Source: an uncultured beta proteobacterium (lineage in GTDB: Bacteria; Pseudomonadota; Gammaproteobacteria; Burkholderiales; SG8-41). Taken from it: DNA of 64,000 nucleotides. Under the pieces are notes generated by a model that saw only the letters and a list, made by a program, of their open reading frames with translations, was not told the origin of the DNA and ran no database searches. Of this stretch, positions 374 through 63,480 are shown one piece after another. Location of the stretch: the NCBI GenBank assembly GCA_963802355.1, contig CAWDIV010000021.1:41847-105846 (forward strand), given 5' to 3'. The translations under genes and the position numbers were made by a program. How positions within the stretch are numbered: position 1 is the stretch's first letter; every line of letters begins with the position of its first letter.

Positions 374-641
374 GGAGCCTATCTCAGCGGCAGGCACGCG
401 TGCGACGGAGGCAATGTGGGATGCAGTTCGCGGAGGAGAGTCCGAAGCAATATGTCGATATTGCGAGGGCTCCCGACAAAGAAATGCGCCCAGATTGCCC
501 CGTCCCTCCGGGTTGCGGCCAGGACGTGCGCCTGCTTCGTTGCCCGGCTTGACCATATCGACATATGGCCTGCGCCGCGCGCCTCGCATCCATCCCGTCC
601 TGGCCACAACGCATCACGCGCCTGCCGCTGAGATAGGCTCC
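374..641. repeat. 268-nt structured repeat element, copy 1 (candidate ncRNA or hairpin-type mobile element)
   Basis: 22-bp perfect closing helix (374-395 with 620-641). Internal hairpins at 447-464, 499-512 and 553-568; 517-526 pairs with 596-605. Second copy at 25331-25598 in reverse orientation. Confidence 0.75.
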
Positions 642-9594: not shown

Positions 9595-9667
9595 GGTGTC
9601 AGGAACTTAGAGTTTAGGGTTCCTGACACCTTAACCTCGCACCTTAGAGTTTAGGGTTCCTGACACC
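9595..9667 (+). repeat. REP-like hairpin GGTGTCAGGAAC-N12-GTTCCTGACACC, followed by a 37-nt tandem duplication of its 3' half
   Basis: Starts 1 nt after the Bug stop codon; the same hairpin occurs at 19941-19977. Confidence 0.8.
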
Positions 9668-9718
9668 TTAACCTCGGCCTTCCCGTTCCCCCCGCACCAT
9701 GACCCTTCTCCGACAACG

Positions 9719-11453: not shown

Positions 11454-11744
11454 AAACAGGCGGACAATCGAAGAACTCGCAGAGCTTGGATGTTGTTCAT
11501 TGGAGCACGCATAGGCGAGACACCGCGCTTCAGAAGCACAGCGCGCTCTACCAAGCTGGGAAGGCGTGCCAGATAAATCGTCCCCCCGAGGCCGGCAACG
11601 GCTAAGTCAGATCTAACGCGGTATGTCCGCTTACGGTAGAGTCGAGATGTGGCGCGGTGACAGTAGGTTCGGTTTGTCTGTTGCCGCCTCTTTCGTCTGG
11701 CGGTGCCCGAGTAACTTCCCCGTAGCTCCGTTTCCACATCCCGC

Positions 11745-12366
11745 TCATCGAACCGGACATGCAGATCTCCCGCATCCGGCTCTCGGACAAGACGTCACGC
11801 CTTCTTGCGCGTGCAGCGCCCTCTGCAGCTTCTGAACACTCGTCGGAGTTGATAGGGTTGCCCCAATCTCCAGGTCCGTCACCACGTCTTGCGCCTGTCC
11901 TGAACTGAGGTCCCTTCCCTCCACCGGCATTACCCGGCTTCAGCGGGACTACGAACCTCTCCGCCACCCCACGGCGCCCGGCCTGTCCCTCGCGGGCCTC
12001 CGGTTGATCATCGCTGATCACGCCTTGGGGCTTCCCGTGTTGCGGGCGCTTTCCTTGTGTACCTGCTGTCGCCACTACCCCGGCGCAGCGGCTGGGAGCA
12101 CTGCCGTGCTCAAATCTCCCGGCCATGTCAGCCTTCCCCGATAGGGTCGTCGGGTCGGCCTGCGCATCGTCCTTTTCGAGGCTTGCTCGGCCTTCACTCG
12201 CGTTACGGCCTGCACACTCGCGCTGTCACCGTATTTCGTGACACGCTATCCGAAGGCTTCAGCCATTTCGTTTCCTCCATAGCTGCTCCGGTTGCTTCCG
12301 GCTGGAGCCGTGGCCGGGTGGGCCTTGCACCCACTGGAAAAGCGCCGCCTTTGCACGGCGCACACC
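11745..12366 (-). mobile_element. Group II intron remnant (5' RNA domains plus the broken N-terminus of the intron-encoded reverse transcriptase)
   Basis: The minus strand starts GTGTGCGCC about 20 nt after the upstream stop codon. Translations give [15 protein letters not shown] and, in another frame, [12 protein letters not shown]; both resemble N-terminal leaders of bacterial group II intron RT/maturases. No RT domain follows. Confidence 0.5.
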
Positions 12367-13619: not shown

Positions 13620-15196
13620 TGAGGTTGCGACGTAACCGGCGCGGTGGTAGAGCGCCCGAGGCGTCTCAATATGCGCCCTCAGGCACCTGCGAGCCGCAAC
13701 GCCCTCATCAATTTGGCCATTCCGAGCAGCCCGATCACGCGCTTCATGTTGTAGGCGAGCACGTGCAGGCTCATCTCGGTGCTGACGTGTTGAAGTCCCC
13801 GGGTCAGGAAGTGCGTTGAGCCCATCCACTGTTTCAGCGTCCCGAACACGTGCTCGATCGTGCGTCGTCGCAGCGTCATTGCTTCGGGTCTGCGGTCGAG
13901 CCGGCGCTGCATAGTTTCCAGCACCGCCTCATGCTCCCAGCGTGTGATGCGTCGATAGCTACTGGTCGTGCATTGCGTCTTGAGCGGGCAGTGCGGGCAA
14001 GCCGATGACCAGTATTTGTGGAGGGTCAGGCCGTGCTCGACCGTTGTGAAACGATGAATGGCACGTTCGCCCGCCGGACATTGGTACTGGTCATCCCTGG
14101 CGACGTAGATGAAGTCCGCCTTGCTGAAACGACCCTCTGCCTTGGCATTGGAGGTCATCGGCTTGGGCACCAGCGGCGCGATGCCGGCCTCAATCGACGC
14201 TTTGATCTCGGGGCCGCTGAAGTAGCCACGGTCGGCCACGGCCTGCAGCCGTGCTTTGCCCATCGCTGATTTCGCTGCCATCCCCATCTTGGTGAGCTGC
14301 GCCCGGTCGCTGCCGACGTTGCTCACCTCGTGCGCCACGATCAGGTGATGCCGGGCATCCACGACTGCCTGAACGTTGTATCCGACAACCCCGGTGCCCT
14401 TGGCCTGGGAGACCATGGAGCGCGCGTCCGGGTCGGTGAGTGAGATCTGTCCGTCGGGCTGCCGCTTCAACTCCTCGCGAATCGTGTCCATGCGCCTCAT
14501 CTGCTCGCGTAAGGTGCTGATCTTCTCGCGCAGCCGCTCGGTCTTGGCTTCGACCTCGGGCGGCTGAGTGCGATCGGCGGTCTCCATCGCCTCCAGGTAG
14601 CGCCGGATGCTTTCGTCAATCTGCTGCTGACGCTTGTCGACTTTGCCTGGGGTGAAGTTGCGGTCTCGGCTGTTGACCGCCTTGAACTTGCTGCTGTCGA
14701 TGGCCACGATGGCCTGCGTGAACAGCTTCAGGTCCCGGCACAACTGCACGAATCGCCGGCACACGTTGCAGATACCAGCGCCGTTGTCGTGGCGGAAGTC
14801 CGCAATCGTTTTGAAGTCGGGTGCCAGTCGACCAGTCAGCCACATCAGTTCAACGTTGCGCTGCGCCTCGCGCTCAAGCCTGCGGCTGGATGCAATGCGG
14901 TTCAAATAACCATAGATGTAGATCTTGAGCAGCACCCTCGGGTGGTACGCCGGCCGCCCCGTCAGCGCTGGGTCGGCGCCAGCAAAGCCCAGCGCCTTCA
15001 GGTCGAGTTCTTCAACAAAGGCATCAACTGCGCGAACCGGGTTGTCCGTGGCGATATAGTCATCGAGACACTCCGGTAGCAGGGTAATCTGCGTTCGGTC
15101 TTCACCTTCGATGAATCGCTTCATATGCCCACCCTGTCTCCATCCCCTTGATGAGCAATGAACGCCTCAGACCTCGTCCCGGTGCACTCAACCTGA
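13620..15196 (-). mobile_element. IS1182-family insertion sequence (boundaries approximate)
   Basis: Single 481-aa transposase; candidate imperfect terminal inverted repeats tgaggttgcgacgtaaccgg (13620-13639) and ccggtgcactcaacctga (15179-15196). Confidence 0.6.
13679..15124 (-). CDS. IS1182-family DDE transposase
   Basis: MKRFIEGEDRTQ...LLPECLDDYI N-terminus, central coiled coil, Cys-cluster (QCPAG...CPHCPLKTQCT) and C-terminal FGTLKQWMG motif. Confidence 0.9.
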   Translation of the reverse strand: MKRFIEGEDRTQITLLPECLDDYIATDNPVRAVDAFVEELDLKALGFAGADPALTGRPAYHPRVLLKIYIYGYLNRIASSRRLEREAQRNVELMWLTGRLAPDFKTIADFRHDNGAGICNVCRRFVQLCRDLKLFTQAIVAIDSSKFKAVNSRDRNFTPGKVDKRQQQIDESIRRYLEAMETADRTQPPEVEAKTERLREKISTLREQMRRMDTIREELKRQPDGQISLTDPDARSMVSQAKGTGVVGYNVQAVVDARHHLIVAHEVSNVGSDRAQLTKMGMAAKSAMGKARLQAVADRGYFSGPEIKASIEAGIAPLVPKPMTSNAKAEGRFSKADFIYVARDDQYQCPAGERAIHRFTTVEHGLTLHKYWSSACPHCPLKTQCTTSSYRRITRWEHEAVLETMQRRLDRRPEAMTLRRRTIEHVFGTLKQWMGSTHFLTRGLQHVSTEMSLHVLAYNMKRVIGLLGMAKLMRALRLAGA

Positions 15197-16085: not shown

Positions 16086-16146
16086 TCACCCGCATCTCGT
16101 CACCCGTATCTCGTCACCCGTAATCGTCACCTGTATCTCGTCACAG
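16086..16146 (-). repeat. Tandem 13-14-nt repeat (GTGACGAGATRCGG, two heptamers per unit), 4.5 units
   Basis: tcacccgcatctcg tcacccgtatctcg tcacccgtaatcg tcacctgtatctcg tcac; begins 8 nt after the stop of the minus-strand monooxygenase gene. Confidence 0.8.
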
Positions 16147-18443: not shown

Positions 18444-18577
18444 AGCCACAGAAACACACGGAAAACACGGATAGGACAGTGGAAGAGATTACGTCACCGT
18501 CTCTGCTTGCGTCTTGCGCTAGCGTCTTGAAGGTGTTTCCCTATTGATCTGTGTTCATCTGTGTGATATCCGTGGCT
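18444..18577. mobile_element. MITE-like hairpin element, CACAGATAAA-arm family, copy a
   Basis: Arms AGCCACAGAAACACACGGAAAACACGGATAGG and CTATTGATCTGTGTTCATCTGTGTGATATCCGTGGCT around a unique core. Confidence 0.7.
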
Positions 18578-19764: not shown

Positions 19765-19940
19765 GTCAGTAATCAGCTGGCCGTAGCTAGTTGGCAGTAG
19801 TGACAAGGAGCCTACCGAATACTGGAACTGATTTCATAAATGGTTGATGTTCATTCGACCCCGCGCAAGGCTGAGGAGAAACACATTCTTTGCAAGCTAG
19901 TCGGTGCCGGGCCCGATTTCTTGCGATCCGCTATCGTTAG

Positions 19941-19977
19941 GGTGTCAGGAACCCTAAACTCTAAGGTTCCTGACACC
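19941..19977 (-). repeat. REP-like hairpin GGTGTCAGGAAC-N12-GGTTCCTGACACC (same family as 9595-9630)
   Basis: Loop is the reverse complement of the 9607-9618 loop, so the orientation relative to the upstream gene is the same; about 25 nt after the restored methyltransferase stop. Confidence 0.8.
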
Positions 19978-20002
19978 CTGGTTACTCCATACTGCCAACT
20001 TT

Positions 20003-20677: not shown

Positions 20678-21035
20678 TAGTGTGCTGTCCCGTAAAAACC
20701 TTGCGTAAGTCGAAAGCCATCGCTGTACCGGAGATGTCGCAGTCTTCGCGCCATTCTTTGAAAGTATCGCGAAATCGGTGCCAGACGCGAAGCAAACCGC
20801 AGCCAGGTTGGACACCTGGCGAGGATTTGCGACAAAGTGTCCCGCGTAGGGCGGAGCAGGTTCCAAGCGTTGTGTGCTTGGATGCGACCCCGGAGCGGGA
20901 CGAACGCGCCCGATGCGCGGGACTGTACGCGCCTGTACGGTCGCATCCCCGGAAGCCCGGGGCCCCTGCTCCACGTTCCGGCGCGTCGCCGATTGTCTCG
21001 GGACTTTTACAGGTTATTTACGGGACAGCACACTA
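20678..21035. mobile_element. 358-bp non-coding element bounded by perfect 19-bp (24/25) terminal inverted repeats TAGTGTGCTGTCCCGTAAA
   Basis: Left TIR 20678-20696, right TIR 21017-21035, TA at both outer ends, no ORF inside; the right TIR contains the histidine kinase stop codon. Confidence 0.7.
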
Positions 21036-24949: not shown

Positions 24950-25330
24950 GGCACCTTTCTGGAAACGCCTTGTTATCCACGGGACGCTTGCAACGCGGCT
25001 GCCGCGTGAGTACGTTGCCTTGGCTCGCCGGCAGCGTGACGGCCTATGACGGCCCCATCCGATAGTAGCGAATGGCGAGAAGGAAGTATGTCGTTGCAGC
25101 ACTACGCGATGTAGTAGTTCGACAGGCTACTGTGCAGGAGCTGTGGATGAAAGCAGCCGCCTGACTGCGTGGCGAACCTCCGGAGAGAAAAGAAGTCCCG
25201 GATGCAAAACCAAAAAATACTCGGGGCGGAAATCCGCACTTGGAGCGCCTCCGTGTGGATAATGTGCTATCCCGCGAAGAGGATTCATCGTGCGACGGGG
25301 GGCACGGGGGGAACGGGAAGGCTCCGATGA

Positions 25331-25598
25331 AGAACCTATCTCAATAGTAGGCGCGTGATGCGTTGTGGCCAGGACGGACCGGATGCAAGGCGCCCGACGC
25401 AGGCCGTATGTCGATATGGTCAAGGAGGGCAACGATGCAGCCGATCGTCCTGGCCGCAACCCGTAGGGACGGGGCGATCTGGGCGCATTTCTTTGTCGGG
25501 AGCCCTCACAATATCGACATATTGCTTCGGACTCTCCTCCTCGAACTGCATCCCACCTCGCCTCCGTCGCACACGTGCCTACTATTGAGATAGGTTCT
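25331..25598. repeat. 268-nt structured repeat element, copy 2 (reverse orientation relative to copy 1)
   Basis: Closing helix AGAACCTATCTCAATAGTAGGC / GCCTACTATTGAGATAGGTTCT; collinear with the reverse complement of 374-641. Confidence 0.75.
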
Positions 25599-25629
25599 AG
25601 CCGGAAGGGGCCCGTTCCCCGCCGGTTAC

Positions 25630-26936
25630 TTACGGAACGTAGACCCATAAATCCAGCAGCACCGTGCAACCCGGCACCGGAAGAAACGGCACCTCGACCG
25701 CCGAGAATGGCAGATACCGCCCCGGCAAGTGCCGCTGCCACACCCGATATGCGGCGTAGAACTCGCCCAAGTCGGTGTGAAACTGCTGGATACGCACCGT
25801 GTTCTCGAGCGATGTGCCCGCGGCGCGACAGATCTTTTCCGCGTTGGTCAGGAGATAGTCCATCTGCGCCTGGATGGTCGAGCCGAAGAAAGGCTGTGCC
25901 GGATCGGGCCGGGCCGCTGCGATGAGGCCGTTCGGGTCTATGGCGAGCATTCCGGAAATGAGCAAAAGATCGCCGGCACGCACCGCCTGGCTGTGATCCG
26001 CCCATGCAGGCATGACTCCGGCCTTCACGACTTGCGCCCGGGTCTTGCCGGCGCTGCGCAGCGCGATCGTGTTGATTTCCACGCGCGCACTCTCGATCGC
26101 CAGTCCCGGGGTAGACATCGGGATCAAGCTCGTCGCCGGGAGATGCTTCGGAAAGTGCTTGCGCCACGCCTCGTTGAACGGCGCGAAGTCGGCGGTGTCG
26201 CGCAGGTACACCTGGCATTTCACGATGTCGGCGAGCGAGGATCCCGCAGCCTTCAACGCCGGTTCGATCTTGTGCTCGACGATGAAGTCCGTTTCGAGCT
26301 TGACGGGGGTTCCCTTCCAGAGGTGCCCGGCAGGCAGGCGTGCTTGGGGGGCGAGCCCGTCTCCGACGGAAAGCGCGTCCGCAATCCGTCCGGCGATGAA
26401 CACGAAGTCTCCCGCCGTGAGCGCCAGGCTGTAGCCGGAGCTGGCGTGGATCTGATGTCCCTTTGCGCTGACGTGCCGCACCTCCATTGCCTTCGCCGGC
26501 ACTACGGCGACCATCTGCACTTCGATCTCCTGGCCGGCAAGCAGGAAGCGTTGCTGCAGGATGGAGGTGCTGGGCGGAATGTGGCCTCCGAGCGCTGCGC
26601 GGCGCGCGGCATGATATGGCTCCACTGCGCGGTAGTCCGTGTAGGACCTGGTCCACCCGCGCGATGCTGCGAACATCGCTGCCGCCCGCCTTCAGGACGT
26701 TTCGGAGATTGAGCGAAGATCCGGTCGGACTCGCGGCGGTGCTTGGCGCTGTCCCAGGACGGAAGGCCGGGACGCAGCACGTCGGACGACATGCCGCTCA
26801 CGTGGTCGGCCGTTCCTTTGTGGCCGGTTGCAAAAATCCAACGCCCCGCCTTGACGCCGGGCGCGTAGCGGATTTCGCCTTTCGGCAGCGTAACGGGCAG
26901 CAGCGGCTTGACCGCCGGGCGGGAAGACTTAGCCAC
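25630..26936 (-). pseudogene. Triple RidA/YjgF/L-PSP-domain protein, two frame changes (about 26710 and about 26645)
   Basis: Domain 1 is split over three frames (…SDRIFA / NLRNVLKAGGSDVRSIARVDQ / YTDYRAVEPYHAARRAAL…). Domains 2 and 3 are intact in ORF 25630-26676. The proposed GTG start at 26936 lies inside a MITE arm. Confidence 0.65.
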
Positions 26937-27093
26937 GGAAACACACGGAAGCACACGGAAAGGACAGAAAACGAAATGCCCAGACAACGAACAAAATCAT
27001 TTCAGTACGCTCTTGCCCAGCCCGGATTCGTCCATCGCTGTCTTGGCTCTTGCTTTTCGATTTATCCGTGTTTATCTGTGTGTATCTGTGGCT
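26931..27093. mobile_element. MITE-like hairpin element, CACAGATAAA-arm family, copy b
   Basis: AGCCACGGAAACACACGGAAGCACACGGAAAGG ... GATTTATCCGTGTTTATCTGTGTGTATCTGTGGCT. Confidence 0.7.
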
Positions 27094-27141
27094 GATTCGC
27101 TTTTTATCCTAAATTCCGTGTGATTCCGTGGCCAAGCTTTC

Positions 27142-28757: not shown

Positions 28758-28852
28758 AGCCACAGATAAACACAGATGAACACAGATAAAGCAATTCGTA
28801 CAAGGCCTTCGCCCTGAGCAACATCCGTGTTTATCTGTGTGTATCTGTGGCT
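28758..28852. mobile_element. MITE-like hairpin element, CACAGATAAA-arm family, copy c (shortest)
   Basis: AGCCACAGATAAACACAGATGAACACAGATAAAGC ... GCAACATCCGTGTTTATCTGTGTGTATCTGTGGCT; lies between convergent genes. Confidence 0.75.
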
Positions 28853-28899
28853 AAGTCGTGCTTTTTCGTTTTTTAGATAGGTTCCAATCGGCCGTTTCG

Positions 28900-47011: not shown

Positions 47012-47416
47012 ATGCGATTTCGAGCGGCCACGCTCAATCTGGAGCAGGATCACAAGCGCTGGGATGCCCGCCGCGAGCTCGTCCTCGAGCAGTTGGCTGC
47101 GCTCCGGCCGGACGTTATGGCGTTGAACGAGGTATGCGTTCCGCTGCAAACGGCGCGGCCATCAGCCGCCCTGATGGCGACACGTTTCCGGCCGACGCAG
47201 ACCGCGCCCACGGCGTTCACCCCACTCTCCGACAGCAATGGCGAGGTTTCCCATTCCGGCCGCGCCCGCATGGACCGCTGCATAGACTTCGTCTGGGTAT
47301 CCAGCGCCGTGCGTGCCTGCGAAAGCGGCGTATGCTTCAATCAGCCGAGCGCCGGCGACGCATCGCTCTGGCCCTCCGATCACGCGGGTGTGTGGGCGGA
47401 CCTGGAAGTCGGGTGA
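47012..47416 (+). pseudogene. Endonuclease/exonuclease/phosphatase (EEP) family remnant with an internal deletion
   Basis: The N-terminal ATLNLEQD...PDVMALNEV and C-terminal RIDFVWVS...SDHAGVWADLE motifs are present, but the ORF is only 134 aa. Confidence 0.6.
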
Positions 47417-47440
47417 CGGGTGACGAGTGACGAGTGACGC
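47413..47440 (+). repeat. GTGACGR heptamer array (4 units) filling the gap between two genes
   Basis: gtgacgg gtgacga gtgacga gtgacgc; the EEP stop codon TGA (47414-47416) is inside unit 1. Confidence 0.85.
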
Positions 47441-47441
47441 A

Positions 47442-48098
47442 ATGCGTTTCCTGGGCCACGCATTGTTCTCTGCCAGCCTGGCGCTGGGAGCGCCCGTCCT
47501 GGCGGCGGAGACAGCACGCGTGGTCGAAACACACTCCATTTCGGGGGAACGGCTTTCCGGAACACAAGGCGCTACGCACGATCTGGCTCTGCACCTGTTC
47601 ACTTTCCAAGGCACGCGCTGGCTGCCCGGCGACATAGCGATGGCAGTGTGGGAGGCGATGCGCCCGCTCGATCAGTGCGGCATTGCGTTCTCGGGAGCCG
47701 AGCTGCGACTGCTCGACGCGCCGGACCGGTTCCGTTTCTATTCCACGCCGGTGTCCAGAGAACTACTGCGCGGGATGACGGTTGCCAAGCCCGCGATTTT
47801 CTTCGTCGAGGACACGCGCAATCAGCCGGCGTACGACGCGGAGGCGGTCGGCCAGGGAAATTCCGCGACGCGCCGCGAGCTCGTGAATACTGTCTGGATC
47901 GCATACGGCGCGCGGGACCTGCCGCTCGCTCTCGCCCACGAGCTCGTGCACTTGTTGTCCGACAGCGGCGACCATAGCGACGAACCCGGCAACCTCATGC
48001 AGCCAGAATCATCGCCGGAGAATACCCGGCTGTCCGACACGCAGTGCCAGCGCTTGCGCGCGCGCGGCGAAGCGAACGGGCTGCTGAAACGTCGCTGA
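47442..48098 (+). CDS. Secreted hypothetical protein with an HExxH-like motif (possible zinc metallopeptidase)
   Basis: Signal peptide MRFLGHALFSASLALGAPVLAA; LALAHELVHLLSDSGDH. Confidence 0.5.
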   Translation: MRFLGHALFSASLALGAPVLAAETARVVETHSISGERLSGTQGATHDLALHLFTFQGTRWLPGDIAMAVWEAMRPLDQCGIAFSGAELRLLDAPDRFRFYSTPVSRELLRGMTVAKPAIFFVEDTRNQPAYDAEAVGQGNSATRRELVNTVWIAYGARDLPLALAHELVHLLSDSGDHSDEPGNLMQPESSPENTRLSDTQCQRLRARGEANGLLKRR

Positions 48099-52239: not shown

Positions 52240-52858
52240 TTACTTGAAAACCTGCTGCATGTAGACGATGAGATCGGCGCGCTCGCGCGCGTCGGGCATG
52301 CCGGCGTAAGGCATGCGCGCATGGGCAGCGCTTCCATCTTGATGTTGTTGCGGACCGTGAGCGTGTCCTGCTGCGTGTTCTGCATGAGATCGTGGCGGTG
52401 CACGTAGCGCAACTCGTCGCGCACCCCTGGCAGCGAATAGTCGTTCGCGGTGTTGCGCATTCCGCCACGCTCGAGCGCGACGACCTTCGGTCCGGCTTCG
52501 GTCAATTCTTTCGACAGTATGCCGCCCGTCCAGCCCAGGCCGACGACGACGACATCGACTTCCTTCAGTTTGGTCGCCATGTGATTTCTCCCGGTCAGCA
52601 CATGTCGGCGATACTGATGACGTCGGCCGTGTATTTCTTGTCACGGAACTTCTCGACGTTCTGATAGTGCACGGCGATGATCCCGGGGAATCCGTCGCGC
52701 ACCCCTGGCAGCGAATAATCGTTCGCGGTGTTGCGCATTCCGCCGCGCTCGAGCGCGACGACCTTCAGTCCGGCTTCGGTCAATTCTTTCGACAGTATGC
52801 CGCCCGTCCAGCCCAGGCCGACGACAACGACATCGACTTCCTTCAGTTTGGTCGCCAT
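52240..52858 (-). pseudogene. Remnants of the gluconate 2-dehydrogenase flavoprotein and cytochrome c subunit genes (two 5' fragments, one chimeric ORF, one 3' tail)
   Basis: MATKLKEVDVVVVGLGWTGGILSKELTEAG occurs twice (starts 52858 and 52580). The first copy is fused to a subunit-3 tail. The second stops after about 90 aa and abuts the cytochrome c C-terminus MPYAGMPDARERADLIVYMQQVFK. Confidence 0.7.
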
Positions 52859-52970
52859 GTGATTTCTCCCGGTCAGCTCATGTCAGCGATGCTGACGATA
52901 TCGGCGATATATTTCTTGTCGCGATACTTCTCGACGTTCTGATAGTGCACCGCGATGATCCCGGGGAAAC
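52415..52970 (-). repeat. Diverged tandem duplication, 2 x 278 bp
   Basis: Unit 52415-52692 against unit 52693-52970 (constant offset of 278 nt). Each unit carries the subunit-3 3' end, the spacer and the flavoprotein 5' end. Confidence 0.75.
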
Positions 52971-56932: not shown

Positions 56933-57089
56933 GGCTGACAGCTCACAGCTGCGATGACGATCTTCCTCATGACGGCGGCCTATCCTGTTTACGGCGAGGT
57001 TTACGCGATGACGGACGGGAGTACGGCAGTAGAATAACACCGCTTGCTGCTTCTCTTACGGATTCGAAATACGACTGTCTGGAGGACTC

Positions 57090-57245
57090 AGCCACAGATA
57101 CACACAGATAAATACGGATAGAAGCGCCGCAACATCGAACACTTCCTGGACGCTGAAGCGCTCCCATCCGCGATGCGCTGTGTTCTCCGGAATGATGAGT
57201 TGCCTGCTTGGACATATCTGTGTTTATCTGTGTTTATCTGTGGCT
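57090..57245. mobile_element. MITE-like hairpin element, CACAGATAAA-arm family, copy d
   Basis: AGCCACAGATACACACAGATAAATACGGATAG ... GGACATATCTGTGTTTATCTGTGTTTATCTGTGGCT, in a divergent promoter region. Confidence 0.75.
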
Positions 57246-57291
57246 CAAATCGGTTTTTGAGAGGGCTTCCACCAACCCACGAGAAAATACG

Positions 57292-63257: not shown

Positions 63258-63412
63258 TCTGATGGAACGGTATGGAATGGCAGGCCTCGATCGCAAAGAA
63301 TTGACAGCATCCCCGCACTCGCCAAGCATGCTACGCCCGGAACAAACGAAAGGCAAAGCCCTTACTGCATCGGTTATGGACGGCCGATGGAGGCGCAAGC
63401 CGTTATACATAT

Positions 63413-63480
63413 AGTGAAGCAGTGAAGTAGTGAAGCGGTGAAGTGGCTTCACTTTCTTCACCTCTTCACTTCTTCACTTC
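63413..63480. repeat. Hairpin made of four AGTGAAGY octamers and four complementary CTTCACYT octamers
   Basis: agtgaagc agtgaagt agtgaagc ggtgaagt gg cttcactt tcttcacc tcttcact tcttcact tc; the stop codon of the last Bug gene (63474-63476) is inside the right arm. Confidence 0.85.

Follow-up and report, generated by a model that had tools for sequence, protein, structure and literature searches.

A TA-flanked 268-bp MITE with covarying terminal inverted repeats in uncultured Burkholderiales-like bacteria

The locus and its two copies

The window, i.e., the whole stretch of 64,000 nucleotides analysed here, contains many genes for TctC/Bug-type receptors, which fits a Burkholderiales-like chromosome. 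Two copies of a non-coding element of 268 nt are embedded in it. Copy 1 occupies positions 374-641 on the forward strand (covariance model 314.7 bits), copy 2 positions 25331-25598 on the reverse strand (314.3 bits), and the two can be aligned collinearly and gap-free over 266-268 nt with 89% identity. A Ribonuc_L-PSP gene (25630-26676, reverse strand) lies upstream of copy 2, which follows its stop codon at a distance of 32 nt. The neighbours of the element are HpcH aldolase, MFS, RidA-like and KaiC-like genes; a reverse transcriptase gene, as an interpretation as retron msr/msd would call for, is not adjacent. When the covariance model of the family was run across the window it recovered these two copies only. 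A weak match at 63423-63476 (12.7 bits) is an unrelated heptamer hairpin.

Both ends of the element pair with each other in a closing helix. In copy 1 the left terminal inverted repeat (TIR, 374-403) is the 5' strand of this helix and pairs with the right TIR (611-641), which is the 3' strand; pairing is perfect in the outermost 22 bp, i.e., 374-395 with 620-641. The corresponding arms of copy 2 are located at 25577-25598 (left) and 25331-25352 (right) on the reverse strand. The 22-bp arms are GGAGCCTATCTCAGCGGCAGGC / GCCTGCCGCTGAGATAGGCTCC in copy 1 and AGAACCTATCTCAATAGTAGGC / GCCTACTATTGAGATAGGTTCT in copy 2. They differ at positions 1, 4, 14, 15, 16 and 18, and all six pairing partners are compensated. 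By our own estimate, which is not a tool output, six exact compensations at about 11% divergence have a chance probability of about 1e-9 under independence. The left TIR contains a variable, AT-rich box (386-392, arm positions 13-19, AGCGGCA in copy 1), which is matched by its reverse complement in the right TIR (623-629).

Between the arms are two internal hairpins. Hairpin A (404-504) has the apex GCAATAT-GTCG-ATATTGC at 447-464. Hairpin B (512-610) has a basal helix, 517-526 with 596-605, and the apex CCATAT-CGAC-ATATGG at 553-568. In a short helix at 499-512 the copies differ in the loop alone. All of these helices, as well as the coordinates, orientations and sequences of both copies, were correctly described in the original prediction.

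The surroundings of the copies are themselves repetitive. A direct repeat of about 30 nt, GGGaCCCgTGAGAGAcGCCGAGCAGC..., is present at 64-95 and 812-843, about 300 nt and about 170 nt from the ends of copy 1. Copy 2 (flanks 25270-25330 and 25599-25633) and a metagenomic copy in locus L008 (flanks 471-501 and 769-833) each lie within a palindromic repeat GGGGAACGGG...CCCGTTCCCC, in opposite orientation relative to this host repeat and in otherwise unrelated loci. An in-situ inversion was considered and rejected: the two loci have no more than about 60 nt and 35 nt of palindromic flank in common and show no relationship beyond it. The two copies look like independent insertions into copies of another palindromic repeat, and the element apparently inserted on two occasions into the loop of this kind of palindrome.

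A dispersed family with TA flanks

A 24-mer probe from hairpin A retrieved 8 copies in two MAGs, six of them in a Burkholderiales MAG (SMAG_U9493) and two in a MAG labelled Streptomycetaceae. With a 20-mer probe from the 3' junction at least 120 metagenome contigs were found, mostly from soil and sediment, for a total of at least 128 further loci. Both probes are interior to the element. Hence the invariance of these two stretches is forced, and the ends have been sampled without bias. BLAST against these loci yielded, among the matches listed, 57 distinct full-length copies and many that are cut by contig ends. The 57 full-length copies among the matches listed lie in unrelated flanking contexts and in both orientations. 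The core is 268 nt long; length variants from 253 to 549 nt are due to non-coding cassettes. Each copy has a stop-free frame of 63-90 codons, far below the length required to encode a transposase.

The mobility signature of the family is observed directly. When the element proper is taken as G...C, a TA adjoins the left end in 36 and the right end in 27 of the 57 copies among the matches listed, and both ends in 20. Position -2 prefers a pyrimidine (C in 27, T in 20 of 57). As the DNA has a GC content of about 63%, these TA flanks constitute a clear 2-bp TA target duplication. The original prediction had proposed to look for a target-site duplication; in the two window copies it is degenerate. 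The junctions of copy 1 read CG...CA, and copy 2 has TA on the left (25598-25599) and TT on the right, so that TA/TA is not intact. The TIRs are 22-30 bp long, are located at the exact ends, and pair perfectly over arm positions 2-22 in 35 of the 57 copies. One detail is a puzzle. Arm position 1 is G:C in 4 copies, compared with about 1 which we would expect from independent decay by our own estimate; under the TA model this base belongs to the duplication.

Several loci document the history of individual copies. L112 is a diverged orthologous region which lacks the element carried by L027; its flanks are just 75% identical and the exact junction is uncertain. L088 is a mini-copy of about 91 nt in which the interior is deleted and both arms are kept, and L010 and L102 are solo ends. 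Chimeric arms, the left and right of different types, are present in L082, L087, L117 and L122. Recombination between copies clearly occurs: L084 (1728-1995) and L072 (3371-3854) share one insertion site on related contigs, yet the copies are 268 and 484 nt long, respectively, and the two extra cassettes of L072 accompany a more diverged central block. Judged from these sequences, the difference points to a gene conversion from another copy and not to two separate insertions. Two other ideas were rejected. L001, which has the same HpcH gene, was considered as an empty site for copy 1, but is uninformative because its synteny with the window ends at position 855. A nested element, i.e., an inner part GGCACG...CGCGCC with its own TA inside a 38-bp outer palindrome, is not borne out either since the inner part was never found without the outer shell.

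TIRs, TA ends, a target-site duplication and long stem-loop transcripts are usual features of bacterial MITEs (PMC2229807). The element is a MITE of a new family; it is absent from Rfam, and no related IS was found. The closing helix is its TIR pair because it sits exactly at the ends of a dispersed, TA-flanked multi-copy element. This position is a matter of observation. The original prediction had denied that the ends are ordinary transposase-recognised inverted repeats. This part of it does not stand: the helix forms the ends of a dispersed TA-flanked element which inserted in either orientation, and its arm blocks are conserved in the manner of transposase-binding sites.

Fold and covariation

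Each copy folds into the closing helix and two hairpins of about 100 nt, and does so far better than shuffled sequences. The z-scores are -9.8 and -11.3 with RNA parameters, -10.2 for the opposite strand and -8.0 with DNA parameters. In an RNAalifold consensus of 42 aligned copies of about 268 nt, about 29 pairs make up the closing helix, which encloses hairpin A, a tiny central hairpin and hairpin B. The 22-bp end helix with its six compensated differences is thus not peculiar to the window copies. It generalises to the 42 aligned, independent copies, in which 98.3% of all cells are standard pairs.

The covariation in this family is real and strong. Thirty of 84 pairs have changed on both sides, compared to 16.4 +/- 1.8 in shuffles (none of 500 reaches this number) and 6-12 in slid controls. 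At the level of cells, 223 have changed on both sides compared to 65.8 in shuffles, again with 0 of 500 reaching the observed value. It is not restricted to the closing helix. In hairpin A the pair 56:111 is CG in 26 and UA in 16 of the 42 copies, and 65:102 is GC in 22 and UA in 18; in hairpin B the pair 190:202 is AU in 28 and CG in 11. The view that pairing is kept while the sequence drifts therefore holds for the closing helix and for the internal hairpins alike. Additional pairs indicated by mutual information, e.g., 161:229, reflect the existence of two subfamilies and are no real pairing.

Hairpin A ends in an apex, ATATGTCGATAT, whose reverse complement forms the apex of hairpin B. The two loops have changed in concert in L056 and L075. 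Since the apices are mutually complementary, the whole element is a degenerate palindrome which is centred on the small central hairpin.

A variable box matched between the arms

The arms are not uniformly variable. In each arm an outer stretch of 13 nt and an inner stretch of about 12 or more nt are conserved; in the left arm positions 2, 5-7, 20 and 22-30 are invariant or nearly so among the 42 copies. The layout is an outer block A-GARCCTRTYTCA, an AT-rich box of 4-5 bp (N5) and an inner block AGGCACGTGTGCGAC or its partner. In entropy, alignment columns 14-17 exceed the rest of the element (1.5-1.7 bits compared with at most 1.45 bits), and box columns are 50-88% A/T. Each of the pairs from 14:264 to 17:261 is realised as AU, UA, GC and CG, yet about 95% are paired.

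The 35 perfectly paired copies, out of 57, comprise 21 arm haplotypes and 15 box types, and two box types coexist within the 64-kb window. In copy pairs with 2-4% interior divergence, two-sided changes affect 2.27 of 21 arm positions and one-sided changes 0.47, and on a tree of the interior the box pairs require 9-15 parsimony steps (the fastest unpaired column requires 15, the next at most 9); recombination between copies may have raised both sets of counts. A safe lower bound is given by the number of distinct matched haplotypes.

Flips from A:T to T:A, for which there is no wobble intermediate, are frequent in the box and difficult to reach by stepwise selection. Such flips are easier to explain if one arm is copied from the other by template switching during replication. 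Template switching can create multibase compensatory changes in a single event (PMC8794818).

One might argue that the box determines specificity, i.e., that each transposase lineage recognises its own box and both arms match because they fit the same protein. All six copies in SMAG_U9493 are TAACT-like, one MAG having one box type, as this would predict. Yet there are at least 15 box types, which are single compensated transitions apart among otherwise near-identical copies, and two of them share the same 64-kb window. Further, an AT-rich box between conserved blocks resembles a minor-groove spacer and not a base-specific site (PMC2170065). Taken together, we consider a role in specificity very unlikely indeed.

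Cassettes and other repeats of the window

Two modules account for the longer copies (336-549 nt), which have one or both of them: one of about 70 nt is inserted in the 3' side of hairpin A, the other, of about 150 nt, in the 5' side of hairpin B. The latter is present in the copies of L079, L087, L049, L103, L127, L117, L072 and L113. It is GC-rich and has an outer helix GGAGCAG/CTGCTCC, an inner helix GCGACC/GGTCGC and hairpins between them. It is accommodated in either orientation at one site of hairpin B and is duplicated in L117. It also occurs alone (L096, 2548-2703; L051, 10946-11115) and, moreover, in a second MITE; thus it is an independent palindromic cassette and not an RNA expansion segment. 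As such it looks like a small mobile palindrome in its own right. An interpretation of the module as a REP/REPIN array was rejected because the unit GGTCGCATCC is not enriched in the window outside of the second MITE.

This second, unrelated MITE-like element is located at 20680-21033. It has 34-bp inverted repeats GTGTGCTGTCCCGTAAAAACC.../...GGTTATTTACGGGACAGCACAC, is bordered by TA at 20678-79 and 21034-35, and folds strongly (z = -7.2). Its interior carries the cassette of about 150 nt at 20839-20990, 87% identical to the cassette of L103. The search of Rfam with this element (20680-21033) gave no match.

Further repeats and mobile DNA are scattered over the window. Two matches to group II intron RNA are on the reverse strand at 11636-11784 and 12198-12336 (RF00029, 42.9 bits; RF02003, 97.4 bits). 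This intron may lack an ORF as there are just about 400 nt between its two matches. Beside it is an IS5/IS1182-like transposase ORF (13679-15124, reverse strand) with the domains DUF772, DDE_Tnp_1 and DDE_Tnp_1_6. A repeat of 30-34 nt, CTTAGAGTTTAGGGTTCCTGACACCTTAAC, occurs as a tandem pair and again inverted about 10 kb away with 97% complementarity (9606-9676, 19936-19986). These repeats bracket a UbiD-like gene, the group II intron and the transposase, and may be the ends of a larger mobile unit. A repeat family of ATCTGTGT-like octamers (e.g., ATCCGTGTTTATCTGTGTGTATCTGTGGCT) is intergenic in both orientations at 18537, 27063-27108, 28758-28877, 57085-57120 and 57215-57260; the related CACGGAAA-type repeat flanks the MITE in L009. 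Runs of a heptamer (GTGACGR or GTGAAGN) are at 1-35, 845-900, 16091-16121, 47416-47446 and 63410-63480, and the last of these is followed by its own reverse complement, which results in a long hairpin just past a gene end. Finally, a tandem duplication at 52415-52970 (278-nt unit, 94% identical) overlaps a predicted coding sequence.

Search for a parent element

The TIR ends of the family are GARCCTRTYTCA...GGCACGTGTGCGAC. Neither the window nor the 129 loci, PLSDB plasmids or viral contigs yielded an autonomous IS with these TIRs. Pairs of the TIR motif spaced 0.56-4 kb apart in all loci were spurious, the search of PLSDB plasmids in distant mode returned noise only, and a left-end scan of viral contigs gave 0 matches. 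Loci which match the right end only were considered as candidates for a parent IS; they proved to be truncated or internally deleted copies. Among 30 ORFs scanned in the 64-kb window there is no IS630-type transposase. The sole transposase among them is the IS5/IS1182-like protein encoded at 13679-15124, and its ends are unrelated.

The original prediction had named two outcomes which would speak against it. One was a known IS of which the element is an end or a deletion derivative; none emerged from the window, the loci, PLSDB or the viral contigs. The other was a set of further copies with uncompensated arms, and the opposite was found: further copies have compensated arms. To our knowledge, accepted families such as Correia and ERIC likewise lack a cognate autonomous IS.

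Alternative explanations

Could the element be a structured RNA, i.e., an RNA gene or a mobile cis-regulatory module, with selection acting on the three-way-junction fold of the transcript and the transposon-like spread being secondary? The closing helix and both internal hairpins covary as one would expect from such an RNA, a U-G pair (49:118) is kept in 41 of 42 copies, and the extra cassettes are located in internal loops. The complementary apical loops which co-change in L056 and L075 could form a kissing interaction, and some MITEs, e.g., ERIC, do affect mRNA stability (PMC2229807). Two tests concern the strand. In the closing helix, G:U (G:T) and A:C occur in a ratio of 10 to 4 on the strand as drawn; this signal is contradicted by the RNA fold, which is better for the opposite strand in 37 of 42 copies, by 5.7 kcal/mol on average. 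The orientation with respect to genes is random: 23 copies have the same and 23 the opposite orientation relative to the upstream gene, 19 and 17 relative to the downstream gene. The absence of a strand bias is directly observed. Conflicting strand tests and random orientation lend no support to a strand-specific RNA. Copy 1 and its immediate surroundings contain no promoter-like or terminator-like site. Searches of Rfam, over the whole window at the gathering threshold and locally by E-value, gave no match, the best E-values of 0.38-7 belonging to unrelated families; in this respect the original prediction, which had recognised no named RNA family, was correct. The common A:T to T:A flips in the box are hard to reconcile with stepwise selection on a transcript, and the TA-flanked insertion at unrelated sites is an event at the level of DNA. 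A structured RNA as the reason for the conserved pairing is thus improbable in our view. Likewise, the dedicated RNA gene which the original prediction envisaged is not favoured given the lack of a promoter and terminator, the equally good folding of both strands and the contradictory results of the two strand tests.

The original prediction had also envisaged that the pairing serves single-stranded DNA. The folded hairpins would be the substrate of an HUH/Y1 enzyme, as in IS200/IS605, REP/REPIN-RAYT or integron attC, or of an enzyme of a new kind, and pairing would be required for movement. This agrees with a strong fold which is equal on either strand and with DNA parameters, with the near-perfect compensation in recently diverged copies, and with a box in which the hairpin structure rather than the sequence is conserved. 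Yet the repeats extend to the very ends and TA is found on both sides; the outer and inner arm blocks are conserved in sequence as are binding sites in duplex DNA; and chimeric copies with 4-6 arm mismatches are still flanked by TA on both sides. A Y1 or HUH gene was not detected among the 30 window ORFs scanned. Mobilisation as single-stranded DNA is therefore unlikely.

Proposed mechanism and significance

The best reading, and probably the correct one, is a non-autonomous MITE of 268 bp which is moved in trans by a TA-inserting, TA-duplicating transposase as in IS630/Tc1-mariner. We infer the type of transposase from the insertion signature: TA duplication is a hallmark of IS630/Tc1-mariner transposition (PMC2170065). 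The conserved outer and inner blocks of each arm would be two protein-binding subsites, with the AT-rich box of 4-5 bp between them free to vary. A precedent is ISY100 of the IS630 family, which duplicates TA and has a 24-bp inverted repeat that is bound through two HTH motifs and an AT-hook (PMC2170065).

This alone does not account for the matched arms. A standard IS630-type transposase has no requirement for complementarity between the arms. Because it is indifferent to arm matching, we infer that the matched box needs an extra process. As the element is a quasi-palindrome, a change in one arm could be transferred to its partner during replication, through template switching or hairpin-directed repair. 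A second possibility, which may act alone or in concert with the first, is that copies whose ends are unable to pair are not propagated. Either process would allow the arms to drift in sequence and to stay complementary.

A more far-reaching version is conceivable. The ends may have to base-pair for mobility, or fold-back copying primed on the conserved inner helix may renew one arm from the other whenever the element transposes. The box would then be a barcode of each element which ties a left end to its own right end. We regard this as a long shot. If true, such a dependence on end-pairing or resynthesis would be new for an element with TIRs and a TA duplication, and it would account for a box that varies more than any other part of the element and yet is hardly ever mismatched.

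Strong covariation is usually read as proof of a functional RNA. Here it occurs in a mobile DNA palindrome without strand-specific signs. The family is a natural warning for the covariation-based discovery of RNAs in metagenomes. With its many copies and arm haplotypes it is also a possible test system in which template switching may be weighed against a hairpin requirement as the source of one-step compensation. The many copies at contig ends indicate an abundant repeat that breaks soil-metagenome assemblies. Further, the MITE marks a lineage of uncultured Burkholderiales-like bacteria.

Comparison with known systems

REPINs are, like the element, small palindromic mobile DNAs which evolve as hairpins. 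They differ in that they are built from REP units of 20-40 nt and have neither a TA duplication nor full-length TIRs. Also, a genome with REPINs should encode a RAYT, which the scanned ORFs of the window do not. In IS200/IS605 and REP elements the hairpins are subterminal, TIRs and a target duplication are absent, and insertion takes place by a fixed site of 4-5 nt, whereas the present element has terminal repeats and TA flanks.

With IS630/Tc1-mariner, as represented by ISY100, the element shares insertion at TA and its duplication. The TIR of ISY100 of about 24 bp, with its bipartite HTH and the AT-hook between, fits the layout of block, AT-rich spacer and block (PMC2170065). On the other hand, the left and right inverted repeats of IS630/Tc1-mariner are imperfect copies whose complementarity is not forced by the mechanism, and neither a transposase gene of this kind nor an IS with matching ends emerged from the sources searched.

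The closest in kind are the TA-flanked ERIC, Correia and RUP and, with respect to compensatory changes, bcr1. ERIC/IRU, Correia/NEMIS and RUP are likewise non-coding, multi-copy and intergenic with TA-ended TIRs and a target duplication; they give rise to long stem-loop transcripts, have size variants due to internal indels, and their transposase is often unknown (PMC2229807). RUP has been linked to IS630-Spn1. The element is larger than ERIC, Correia and RUP, 268 bp and up to 549 bp with cassettes, and forms a three-way junction where these form one long hairpin. Its hosts, unlike theirs, are uncultured soil Burkholderiales-like genomes. We know of no description of a variable but arm-matched box in the TIRs of ERIC, Correia or RUP. 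bcr1 of the Bacillus cereus group is another mobile, MITE-like repeat; its cruciform-like structure is maintained by compensatory changes (PMC3184786). Unlike the element, it has a length of about 155 bp, flanking direct repeats of 5 bp and known transcription, and a sequence relationship does not exist. The features which distinguish the present family are the quasi-palindrome with a three-way junction, the shared cassettes and the variable box that is matched between the arms.
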